A stretch of DNA of 4,166 nucleotides from a virus (Duplodnaviria; Heunggongvirae; Uroviricota; Caudoviricetes). Below are positions 2,400 through 3,350 of this stretch, piece by piece (position 1 is the stretch's first letter; each line of letters starts with the position of its first letter). The notes below the pieces were generated by a model. The model was not told where the DNA came from and searched no databases. It was given only the letters and a program-made list of their open reading frames with translations. The DNA lies in IMG/VR virus record IMGVR_UViG_2645727555_000033. One strand, 5' to 3'. Both the position numbers and the translations under genes were made by a program.

Positions 2400-2504
2400 T
2401 TATCCTTTGGGTTCTATGCCGCGTTGCTGTAATTCTTTGCGGATTATTCGCTTTATCCAGGCAGCAAGAGAATCATCGCCGTCCTGTTGTTGTGCCTTTT
2501 CCAT
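2400..2504 (-). CDS. Hypothetical 34-aa ORF (leader-peptide-like or small protein)
   Basis: Translated by hand from the minus strand: ATG at 2504 to TAA at 2402-2400, giving MEKAQQQDGDDSLAAWIKRIIRKELQQRGIEPKG. It is below the size cutoff of the supplied ORF track. The Shine-Dalgarno is weak (GGGAAAAG). Its position immediately upstream of a hairpin and the 61-aa ORF is the main support. Confidence 0.3.
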   Translation of the reverse strand: MEKAQQQDGDDSLAAWIKRIIRKELQQRGIEPKG

Positions 2505-2572
2505 CTTTTCCCGTAAGTCAGGATCTAAACGGAACTGGAACGGAGGATTACCACGCCTTTCGTTTTTGTGTG

Positions 2573-2628
2573 TTGACACGTTAATTACACCTCATGTAAT
2601 GTATTTATGTGTAATGACACATTACACA
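2573..2628 (+). promoter_or_regulatory. Promoter/operator region: consensus -35 TTGACA with four TGTAAT/ATTACA half-sites
   Basis: TTGACA at 2573-2578; a possible -10 TAATGT at 2597-2602 (18-bp spacer). Half-sites: ATTACA 2584-2589, TGTAAT 2595-2600, TGTAAT 2610-2615, ATTACA 2621-2626. The last two lie inside a perfect 9-bp inverted repeat TGTGTAATG-aca-CATTACACA (2608-2628). The operators overlap the spacer, -10 and predicted start, a classic repressor-controlled layout between divergent transcription units. Confidence 0.45.
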
Positions 2629-2646
2629 CAATCAACACAAAAAGCA

Positions 2647-2679
2647 AAGCCCCGCACTGTAGGAGCAGTAACGGGGCTT
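2647..2679. other. Hairpin presenting a Shine-Dalgarno copy (UAGGAG) in its apical loop
   Basis: 8-bp stem AAGCCCCG/CGGGGCTT (2647-2654 and 2672-2679) plus an inner 4-bp stem ACTG/CAGT, with loop TAGGAG (2660-2665). The heptamer TAGGAGC (2660-2666) is repeated exactly as the real ribosome-binding site of the first operon gene (2698-2704). On the minus strand the hairpin is followed by a U-rich run (CUUUGCUUUUUGUG), so it could also act as a minus-strand terminator. Confidence 0.4.
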
Positions 2680-2708
2680 CTAACCAACAACGTAAACTAG
2701 GAGCCGTT

Positions 2709-2903
2709 ATGGTTGCCGTAAATCATATACCACACCTTGTACACACACAAACGGCCTTTGTGTGGCGTTTTCTGGCACTGAGTGCCGGAGAATCTCAAAT
2801 CATCCACGTAACCGCCTGGAGGGAACGCGAAGCGCGTAGCCGTTGCCCGTCCGGTTGTGTTGCTGTATTCGCCGCCCGTATTCGTCAGGGGGTAGGCTTA
2901 TGA
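2709..2903 (+). CDS. Hypothetical small protein (64 aa), first gene of the plus-strand operon
   Basis: ATG at 2709 with Shine-Dalgarno TAGGAG five nt upstream. Its TGA stop overlaps the next start (ATGA at 2900-2903). Codon usage looks enterobacterial. Protein: MVAVNHIPHLVHTQTAFVWRFLALSAGESQIIHVTAWREREARSRCPSGCVAVFAARIRQGVGL. The longer track ORF from 2607 has no ribosome-binding site and is rejected. Confidence 0.45.
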   Translation: MVAVNHIPHLVHTQTAFVWRFLALSAGESQIIHVTAWREREARSRCPSGCVAVFAARIRQGVGL

Positions 2904-3133: not shown

Positions 3134-3350
3134 AACCACACCGGACGCAGCCGCCGCCGCACTCACTACGCTGATGCACGCGCTTATTGATATTGAATGC
3201 ACGGCAGAGCTTGCACAAAAGGAAGAACGGGAGGAATACACATTGTTCGCCCTGGAATGTATCCGATACACCGCCACGCGGTCGCTGAATGACGCTAAAA
3301 ATATTCTTGTTGCTGATTGTGAAAATGGGGAGGGGGGGGGTTATGCGTGA
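3123..3350 (+). CDS. Hypothetical small protein (75 aa); its 3' end carries a G9 tract
   Basis: ATG at 3123 preceded by GGAGGGG, overlapping the end of the previous gene by 11 nt. Protein: MCNKTTPDAAAAALTTLMHALIDIECTAELAQKEEREEYTLFALECIRYTATRSLNDAKNILVADCENGEGGGYA. The last codons run through GGGG-A-GGGGGGGGG (3327-3340). Confidence 0.5.
   Translation: MCNKTTPDAAAAALTTLMHALIDIECTAELAQKEEREEYTLFALECIRYTATRSLNDAKNILVADCENGEGGGYA
3332..3340 (+). repeat. G9 homopolymer tract at the junction of the third and fourth operon genes
   Basis: Read directly: nine consecutive G at 3332-3340, preceded by GGGGA. The tract encodes the C-terminal Gly residues of the upstream ORF and also serves as the ribosome-binding site of the downstream ORF, whose ATG is at 3343 in the +1 frame. 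Confidence 0.9.

Follow-up and report, generated by a model that had tools for sequence, protein, structure and literature searches.

What is a hairpin doing just upstream of the first gene of an operon when part of it repeats, letter for letter, the ribosome-binding site of that gene? The question arises from the 4166-nt stretch of DNA analysed here (the window), where an initial annotation had found the heptamer TAGGAGC twice, once as the apical loop of a two-tier hairpin in a leader and once as the ribosome-binding site of the first operon gene. Two ideas came with that annotation: that the loop copy is a decoy Shine-Dalgarno (SD) sequence, titrating ribosomes or serving as the target of an anti-SD RNA or protein, and that the same hairpin, read on the minus strand, could end antisense transcripts. 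Using folds of both strands, comparison with homologous regions and searches against known RNA families, we arrive at a reading that develops the second of these ideas. The hairpin is probably the terminator of a cis-antisense RNA of about 77 nt, which would lie over the start codon, the ribosome-binding site and the leader of an icd-like gene.

Genetic context of the hairpin

Its gene content identifies the window as the left end of an integrated PICI/cfPICI/P4-like phage satellite. A tyrosine integrase (1-1230) and an AlpA-family regulator (1595-1783), both identified through Pfam, are followed by two small leftward ORFs, the second of which (2400-2579, minus strand) is a divergent gene for a small Arc-like (ribbon-helix-helix) repressor (phrog_228, E = 2.1e-6) that also resembles YlcI/YnfO weakly (20 bits, cutoff 30). 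Beyond this ORF lies a divergent control region, followed by a rightward operon that opens with a gene of the Icd-like family of host cell-division inhibitors (2709-2903, plus strand; NF033153, 60.3 bits against a cutoff of 25). RefSeq gives the same annotation to the icd-like gene of a 99% identical locus in E. coli E110019, which adjoins roxA and goes on to genes for a RepA helicase, SSB, PerC, a major capsid protein, a prohead protease and a portal protein. The cfPICI layout has capsid, protease and portal genes without tail genes. Integrase and AlpA, the divergent control region and, in E110019, the replication, capsid, protease and portal genes are all features of Gram-negative PICIs and cfPICIs. 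A search of 50,697 phage records (megablast and blastn) gives no match to the element or to the cassette described below, which argues for a satellite or island and against a known phage.

The operon probably has its promoter at 2573-2600 on the plus strand, where inspection finds TTGACA (2573-2578), a 16-nt spacer and TGTAAT (2595-2600); the -10 hexamer reads TATAAT in one homologous locus (L042), and the position of the promoter would put the transcription start near 2607. A perfect inverted repeat turned up by repeat search, GTGTAATG-ACA-CATTACAC (2609-2627), is a probable operator, with a related site at 2563-2583; the upstream modules of the homologues each have a palindrome of their own. 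Given this rightward promoter, the hairpin probably does fall within the mRNA leader, as was first supposed, and a leader that begins at about 2607 probably holds the complement of the whole small RNA predicted below. A consensus sigma-70 scan of both strands between 2300 and 2950 calls no promoter, so the operon promoter and the antisense promoter proposed here rest on inspection and conservation.

The hairpin and the repeated heptamer

The repeat is real. TAGGAGC occurs exactly twice in the window, at 2660-2666 and at 2698-2704, both times on the plus strand, where chance would give 0.28 occurrences; two or more matches are found in 5 of 200 shuffled sequences. The second copy makes a plausible SD, as had been claimed, 4 nt upstream of the ATG (2709) of the Icd-like ORF, and we treat it as the true SD of the icd-like gene and, from its sequence, as the predicted target of the loop of an antisense stem-loop, SL1, introduced below. 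The similarity extends weakly to 15 nt (2660-2674 against 2698-2712, 12 of 15 identical). This longer repeat could be read as a duplicated translation start region, a reading we do not find persuasive because the extra matches lie in bases that are constrained by the hairpin stem and are common to other alleles.

The two-tier hairpin is equally real: it occupies 2647-2679 in both the MFE and the centroid folds of the plus strand and has the form AAGCCCCG...CGGGGCTT, with an inner stem ACTG/CAGT. The plus strand from 2605 to 2720 folds to -34.2 kcal/mol (z = -3.25), a value as good as which was found in none of 200 shuffles, and the hairpin alone gives -19.0 kcal/mol on the plus strand and -20.0 kcal/mol on the minus strand. 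The proposal that the heptamer forms the apical loop stands for its core only. In the plus-strand MFE fold AGGA (2661-2664) is unpaired, whereas T2660 and G2665 pair within the inner stem, so that the heptamer is displayed only in part. The U-rich tract that was said to follow the hairpin on the minus strand is indeed there (TTTGCTTTTT). On the plus strand there is no U tract and no terminator is called, on which grounds we reject a plus-strand terminator or attenuator at the hairpin. A role as a 5'-terminal, mRNA-stabilising hairpin is unlikely too, given the roughly 40 nt between the inferred transcription start and the beginning of the hairpin.

Homologous regions and the strand under selection

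Homologous regions were gathered through the Icd protein, not through the RNA, and were then anchored on the conserved motif. The sources in IMG/VR are 80 loci found with the Icd of the window, 80 with a second Icd class and 24 with the Icd of Rahnella, to which several annotated E. coli and plasmid loci were added. The comparison covers about 110 related sequences and more than 100 distinct homologous regions; collection by icd homology and anchoring on the motif could miss relatives that lack the cassette, other than those with a C4-type RNA, and the breadth of the sample across species comes from the IMG/VR loci and one Rahnella plasmid. A scan of genome contigs has at least one relative among the matches listed. 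Similarity between elements begins at about 2634-2647 of the window, in the A-rich tract just 5' of the hairpin. Left of this tract the repressor gene, the operators and the promoters are replaced in the homologues by unrelated modules, which assigns the hairpin to the conserved icd module. The base of its stem is kept, with a clean compensatory switch from AAGCCCCG/CGGGGCTT to ACGCCCCG/CGGGGCGT.

The pairs themselves tell us on which strand the structure has been kept. A helix that is selected as RNA tolerates G·U pairs, and the complementary strand then has C·A mismatches in their place. Over 28 hairpin alleles, the minus-strand folds contain 410 pairs, 69 of them G·U, and the plus-strand folds contain 345 pairs, 13 of them G·U. 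The minus strand is the more stable one in 26 of the 28 alleles (mean 5.75 kcal/mol), and for an earlier allele set the summed energy is -408 kcal/mol on the minus strand against -315 kcal/mol on the plus strand. The G·U excess on the minus strand argues that the hairpin has been selected as minus-strand RNA, and we conclude from these alignments and folds that the minus-strand RNA is the selected molecule.

Covariation establishes the structure itself. When 27 alleles of the hairpin are aligned with MAFFT, 97.5% of the cells are paired and 8 of the 12 pairs have changed on both sides; not one of 500 shuffles reaches any of these measures, and slid controls stay at or below 55%. RNAalifold, applied to 44 diverse sequences, returns two hairpins with 20 pairs in all, 12 of which show compensatory change. 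An example from SL1, the hairpin other than the one first described, is the pair 14-26, which is UA in 28 sequences and AU in 10.

A predicted antisense RNA and its parts

From the two-hairpin fold and its covariation we predict a cis-antisense RNA of about 77 nt on the minus strand (2639-2715), made up of SL1, a second stem-loop SL2 and a U tract. Its 5' end is taken from a -10 element and its 3' end from the U tract, such that the model starts 7 nt after the hexamer and ends within the T tract. The architecture is conserved without exception in our sample: the 62 E. coli-type and the 23 distant versions, the latter reaching down to 42% Icd identity and including the Rahnella plasmid, all have SL1, SL2 and the T-rich tail within 76-82 nt, and every one of them is 1-18 kcal/mol more stable on the minus strand than its complement.

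SL2 (2646-2680, minus strand) is the hairpin of the initial annotation. It has a GC-rich stem and a 6-nt loop CUCCUA, and fold and covariation lead us to read it as the stem of an intrinsic terminator. The U-rich tail that follows, UUUGCUUUUU (2639-2648, minus strand), is A-rich on the plus strand and marks the boundary of the conserved module; a GC-rich minus-strand stem of -20 kcal/mol followed by UUUGCUUUUU has the anatomy of a Rho-independent terminator. A T-rich tail comes after the hairpin in all alleles, including that of a locus (L114) in which the hairpin is unrelated in sequence. In many alleles the U tract is interrupted by G or C, as in UUCGUCGUUU, and termination efficiency is therefore uncertain. 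It is nevertheless the earlier suggestion that the minus-strand hairpin and U tract could end antisense transcripts, and not the suggestion of a decoy, that the comparative evidence favours.

SL1 (2682-2714, minus strand), predicted from folds and covariation, lies about 35 nt upstream of SL2 on the minus strand. Its stem joins the complement of the start-codon region to UGGUU, and its 12-nt loop, GCUCCUAGUUUA, contains an anti-SD sequence. Across versions, UGG(U)U is always the stem partner of the sequence complementary to the start-codon region; the loop is 7-12 nt long and has CUCC or CCUC (anti-SD) in most groups, mostly with a 7-nt loop. A covariance model (R1) built from the RNAalifold alignment recovers 2639-2715 on the minus strand with 71.5 bits, as expected from its construction, and in each locus matches only at the expected place and strand. 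Run on loci that have a C4-type RNA before icd, the model finds no match.

A promoter-like element inside the icd-like gene

In this model the promoter of the RNA would lie within the icd-like gene, and conservation points to a candidate. The predicted -10 element, TATGAT (2727→2722, minus strand), sits inside the first icd-like codons, and of 109 distinct contexts 108 have a hexamer of the form TAnnnT at the corresponding position, as TATGAT, TATGCT, TATAAT, TATAGT, TATTAT, TAGACT, TACACT or TACTAT. The codon beneath it varies between His, Ser, Cys, Tyr and Asn (CAT, TCT, TGT, TAT, AAT, AGT). That the first T, the A and the final T are kept while the codon changes is hard to explain by protein coding alone. 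When contexts are taken without pre-selection for the hexamer, TATG[AC]T is present in 81 of 89; seven of the remaining eight have TATAAT, TATAGT or TATTAT after TGG, and the eighth is an unrelated sequence. The distant set has TAGACT, TATGCT, TACACT and TACTAT, and some variants of the element improve to TGGTATAAT.

The predicted -35 element, TTGTGT (2745-2750, minus strand), is separated from the -10 element by a 17-nt spacer and is likewise proposed from conservation. TTGTGT-N17 is invariant in 49 distinct E. coli-type sequences, among them a paralogous icd class that is otherwise unalignable. Read along the minus strand, these 49 sequences show a series of invariant islands. The first, GTTTGTGTGTG, holds TTGTGT; 17 variable bases further on comes TATG(A/C)T, followed by CCATAA, which is complementary to the start codon, and the last island, TGGTTAGA, abuts the hairpin. 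Group F does not conserve the -35 element and has TGnTATGAT in its stead, nor is it kept in the Rahnella-type set; in both, the promoter may be of the extended -10 type, may depend on an activator, or the start may lie elsewhere. TTGTGT-N17-TATGAT matches the consensus at only 8 of 12 positions, the sigma-70 scan of 2300-2950 is negative, and the HTQT/His residues that Icd itself conserves could account for part of the conservation.

Alternative readings

If the promoter inside icd is real, its product need not be a short free RNA. The main alternative is that it is an establishment-type promoter, like PRE of lambda, for the Arc-like repressor, with the hairpin as an attenuator or partial terminator and repressor mRNA as the main product. 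The predicted promoter does always face a divergent gene for a small repressor, which is Arc-like here, YlcI/YnfO in L083 and HicB-like in Rahnella. The imperfect U tract of many alleles makes read-through plausible, and the poor -35 of distant relatives is what activator-dependent promoters have. Against this, the hairpins are strong (-19 to -28 kcal/mol) and have T-rich tails. What travels together is, moreover, the cassette and icd, whereas the repressor modules are mutually unrelated and each has promoter-like and operator sequences of its own; in the window, a candidate repressor promoter (TTGCTT at 2647→2642, a 17-nt spacer and TAATGT at 2624→2619, minus strand) sits downstream of the minus-strand terminator. 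A tandem copy of the cassette also persists beside a remnant of icd. We consider read-through into the repressor gene unlikely as the main purpose of the promoter.

A second possibility keeps the hairpin on the mRNA and dispenses with antisense RNA: the plus-strand structure would serve stability, processing or the binding of a protein such as an antiterminator. The hairpin does fold on the plus strand (-19 kcal/mol in the window) within the leader, and a conserved GCTTCTAACCAAC just 3' of the hairpin bears what we take to be a faint likeness to boxA. But 26 of the 28 alleles fold less stably on the plus strand, where C·A mismatches replace the G·U pairs of the minus strand, and a distance of about 40 nt from the inferred 5' end does not suit a 5'-terminal protective stem. 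An mRNA structure leaves both the conserved T-rich tail and the TAnnnT hexamer on the other strand unexplained, and we regard this reading as very unlikely.

The decoy reading, in which the leader hairpin shows ribosomes, or an anti-SD RNA or protein, a second SD, has in its favour that the identity of the heptamers is real and mildly unlikely by chance (12 of 15 nt over the longer repeat), that the hairpin is probably in the mRNA leader, and that a few alleles have related loops such as TTGGAG. It fails on comparison. The apex is hypervariable and is the least conserved part of the hairpin, with at least 28 alleles among the homologues, most of them not SD-like; on the plus strand the loops include TAGGAG, TTGGAG, CTGGGAA, CCGGAAA, TCGTTAC, TCATTAC, TTTGCGG, CTCGCAA, CTATGAA and GCGCTAA, and in L114 a wholly unrelated hairpin sequence takes the same place and is again followed by GTTTGC. 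Nor do loop and SD covary: the TAGGAG loop is combined with any of three true SDs, TAGGAGCC, CGAGGAGCC or TCGAGGCAGC, and about ten different loops accompany the SD TAGGAGCC, so the identity between loop and SD is specific to particular alleles. With only AGGA unpaired in the plus-strand MFE fold, and with the asymmetry between G·U and C·A pointing to selection on the other strand, a decoy function is extremely unlikely, and to judge from the alleles compared here the RBS-like loop is an accident of one allele combination.

That the hairpin is instead a palindrome acting at the DNA level, as a protein site or a recombination hot spot at the junction of the immunity and icd modules, is scarcely credible, for although homology breakpoints fall at its 5' edge, modules are inserted and duplicated there and apex alleles reassort with both flanks, such a palindrome would not favour G·U over C·A on one particular strand (69 against 13), and protein sites seldom tolerate the full replacement of sequence with pairing kept that L114 shows.

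Comparison with known regulatory RNAs

The antisense reading, which we prefer, places the cassette close to several known kinds of antisense RNA without making it a member of a known family. A search of the whole window on both strands against Rfam (E <= 1) finds no C4, isrK, sar or other family; what it returns are chance-level matches to sau-6072 (24.3 bits, cutoff 50) and rnk_pseudo (24 bits, cutoff 55).

The nearest functional relatives would be C4 and CI. Both are encoded on the same strand as icd and upstream of it, are cut from the leader transcript and pair with their targets through short loops. The RNA predicted here is like C4 of P1/P7 and CI of P4 in being a small RNA that would mask the translation start of icd, a gene that heads an early or immunity operon. 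It is unlike them in lying opposite icd, in being fully complementary and in having a predicted promoter and terminator of its own. A processed leader RNA of the C4/CI kind can be rejected for the window: no model matches, the window contains no complement of TAGGAGC, and the selected strand is the wrong one, since C4 lies in the leader on the strand of icd and both the G·U asymmetry and the T-rich tail point to the opposite strand. Repression of the c4-icd-ant operon of P1 is complete only with the C4 antisense RNA (PMC8198154), and Icd of P1 blocks growth and Z-ring formation through FtsZ (PMC11897509). Upstream of a homologous icd in E. albertii (L002), C4 (Rfam RF01695, clan CL00128, gathering score 45 bits) scores 77.7 bits and isrK 61.6 bits, both above their Rfam thresholds, and as the window has neither, icd seems to be guarded by one RNA in one branch of these related elements and by another RNA in a second branch.

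A close parallel in layout is sar, from the immI region of Salmonella phage P22. This cis-antisense RNA of about 69 nt is made from a promoter that faces that of the operon, covers the RBS of the early gene ant and stops at an intrinsic terminator; the Arc repressor is encoded in the same region. The cassette resembles it in its predicted facing promoters, in a predicted short antisense RNA over the RBS and in the Arc-type repressor next to it. The two are unrelated in sequence, the target is icd-like and not ant, and arc shares an operon with ant in P22, whereas the Arc-like gene of the window is transcribed divergently. Structure on the antisense strand with covariation, as for RNAs of the sar and SymR type, is what we find (12 of 20 pairs over the two hairpins, 8 of 12 in SL2).

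A wider class, in which we include lambda OOP and the RNAs of type I toxin-antitoxin systems such as SymR/symE, is similar in that a short cis-encoded RNA of about 77 nt with an intrinsic terminator overlaps the 5' or 3' part of an mRNA. The targets of SymR and OOP are harmful or tightly controlled small proteins, and Icd of P1 is growth-inhibitory (PMC11897509). Here the resemblance is of design, not of sequence, and the icd-like gene heads a long replication and packaging operon, unlike a stand-alone toxin gene. SL2 itself is like any ordinary Rho-independent terminator in its GC-rich stem of 13-16 pairs, its loop of 3-7 nt and its T-rich tail on the minus strand; it differs in combining a hypervariable apex with a near-invariant base and flanks, which neutral drift of a terminator does not predict. 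Cis-antisense RNAs with an intrinsic terminator are thus a known kind, to which the present candidate would add one absent from Rfam and from annotation. Searches of the literature for Icd-like proteins with antisense, for PICIs with antisense RNA and for the sequence strings found no report of it.

Possible mechanism and the variable apex

That the RNA is produced, where exactly it ends and how it affects icd are points we infer from this arrangement. Transcription would start near 2715, from the promoter inside the icd-like gene, and run leftwards for about 77 nt, ending just before the operator and promoter region of the divergent Arc-like repressor gene. The product would pair with the leader, SD and AUG of the operon mRNA, to which it is fully complementary, and so block translation of the Icd-like protein. 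By analogy, expression of the downstream replication genes might also be lowered, through cleavage of the duplex or through loss of transcription that is coupled to translation. In a quiescent satellite, leaky transcription would in this way be silenced. Every helix of the minus strand is mirrored on the mRNA, and the leader hairpin may thus have a part of its own, for example as the pairing partner. It is likely, as the initial annotation had suggested, that the operon is controlled post-transcriptionally, but by way of an antisense RNA and not of a decoy site.

The antisense model does not by itself say why the apex of SL2 should vary so much. Within one leader group the mean pairwise identity is 72% in the apex against 95% in its surroundings. 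The alleles are not simply a part of the upstream immunity module, to which they are only partly linked: the TAGGAG allele is present with at least six upstream modules and at least five leader types, and apex alleles reassort with both flanks. Diversifying selection on a determinant of kissing-loop pairing is possible on this pattern. More speculatively, and with considerable doubt on our part, the hypervariable apex of SL2 and its mirror image in the leader might together set the specificity of the pairing, which would make these RNAs allele-specific antisense 'immunity' RNAs. Alleles would then diversify and reassort so that co-resident satellites avoid silencing one another, much as plasmid incompatibility groups are set by the loops of antisense RNAs; such satellites reach up to 6 copies per E. 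coli genome. Were this so, it would amount to a previously unrecognised regulatory layer in Gram-negative PICIs.

Significance and distribution

The silencing of Gram-negative PICIs is poorly understood, and whether they have a master repressor at all has been described as unclear (PMC6092414). The cassette is part of the regulatory switch of PICI/cfPICI/P4-like satellites. Provided that the RNA is made, icd is kept off in two ways, by sense-encoded, processed C4/CI RNAs of the P1/P4 type and by a true cis-antisense RNA. It is a concrete candidate for a small RNA, with predicted ends, promoter and target, that can be tested cheaply. It also carries a warning for annotation, because a look-alike of a ribosome-binding site in a hairpin loop can be a by-product of one allele of an antisense terminator.

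The cassette is common. A 95-nt query has matches in 975 of 5426 complete E. coli genomes, with EDL933 (ATCC 43894), Nissle 1917 and ATCC 25922 among the carriers; the match in ATCC 43894/EDL933 lies at 1682586-1682679 of NZ_CP194055.1 and that in Nissle 1917 at about 1312117-1312162 of NZ_CP007799.1. The cassette is present on a Rahnella plasmid as well.

Association of the predicted antisense cassette with icd and other genes

In some of the homologous loci gathered for comparison, the antisense cassette (the predicted minus-strand RNA gene that, in the window, lies over the start codon, ribosome-binding site and leader of icd) occurs twice in tandem: in L032, at about 680-800 and again at about 1430-1500, and likewise in L035, L054, L068, L069 and L078. 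In these elements the first cassette is joined to a truncated icd remnant and has an inserted repressor module after it, and RefSeq annotates them as 'Icd-like (x2)'. The alleles at the apex of the predicted terminator hairpin always differ between the two copies.

In some genomes, namely in L084 (2784-2861) and in several matches from E. coli (H48, H49, H54, H60), what lies downstream of the cassette is a gene annotated as 'ash family protein' or fragments of a pseudogenised icd, and thus the association of the cassette with icd is, in annotation, frequent but not exclusive. A homologous icd can be preceded by other RNAs: in the E. albertii locus L002 (1247-1435) we find isrK (61.6 bits) and a C4 antisense RNA (77.7 bits) upstream of icd and on the same strand. 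This is the P1/P4-type solution, in contrast to the antisense cassette found in the window.

A hairpin within the icd coding sequence

On the plus strand, codons 12-22 of icd contain a perfect 8-bp hairpin at 2744-2775, CACACAAA-CGGCC-TTTGTGTG, followed by GCGTTTTCTG. The hairpin overlaps the predicted -35 element of the antisense promoter and could serve as a terminator for operon transcripts that are not being translated. Its conservation does not extend to the other icd classes.

Probable operator region and leftward repressor operon

Between 2563 and 2627, the half-site TGTAATG/CATTACA is present three times together with a related site, and this set overlaps the -35 element (TTGACA) of the probable rightward promoter; the Arc-like repressor probably uses these repeats as its operators. 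Where homologues carry unrelated upstream modules, each such module has its own palindrome in the matching position.

Two terminator-like sites lie on the minus strand, in the same orientation as the Arc-like repressor gene. One is a hairpin, GCGCCGTGGTGTGAGGAACTACGGCGC followed by ATTTCTTT, at 2364-2390, in the gap that separates the Arc-like gene (2400-2579) from the leftward ORF after it (2157-2342), and it may act as an internal attenuator of this small leftward operon. The other, at 1931-1985, is strong on this strand and consists of a GC hairpin (GCGCCCAG..CTGAGCGC) flanked by an A tract and a T run; it would end the leftward repressor operon. The only Rfam match at this site is a chance-level look-alike, sau-6072, whose 24.3 bits fall short of the cutoff of 50. 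The 1931-1985 hairpin lies inside a plus-strand ORF (1841-2089) that has no family match and is unannotated in the identical RefSeq locus.

A G-rich run before a downstream ORF

Directly upstream of an ATG at 3343 is the run GGGGAGGGGGGGGG (G4-A-G9) at 3328-3341, a homopolymer that is long enough for slippage and that would also be the ribosome-binding site of the ORF starting there.
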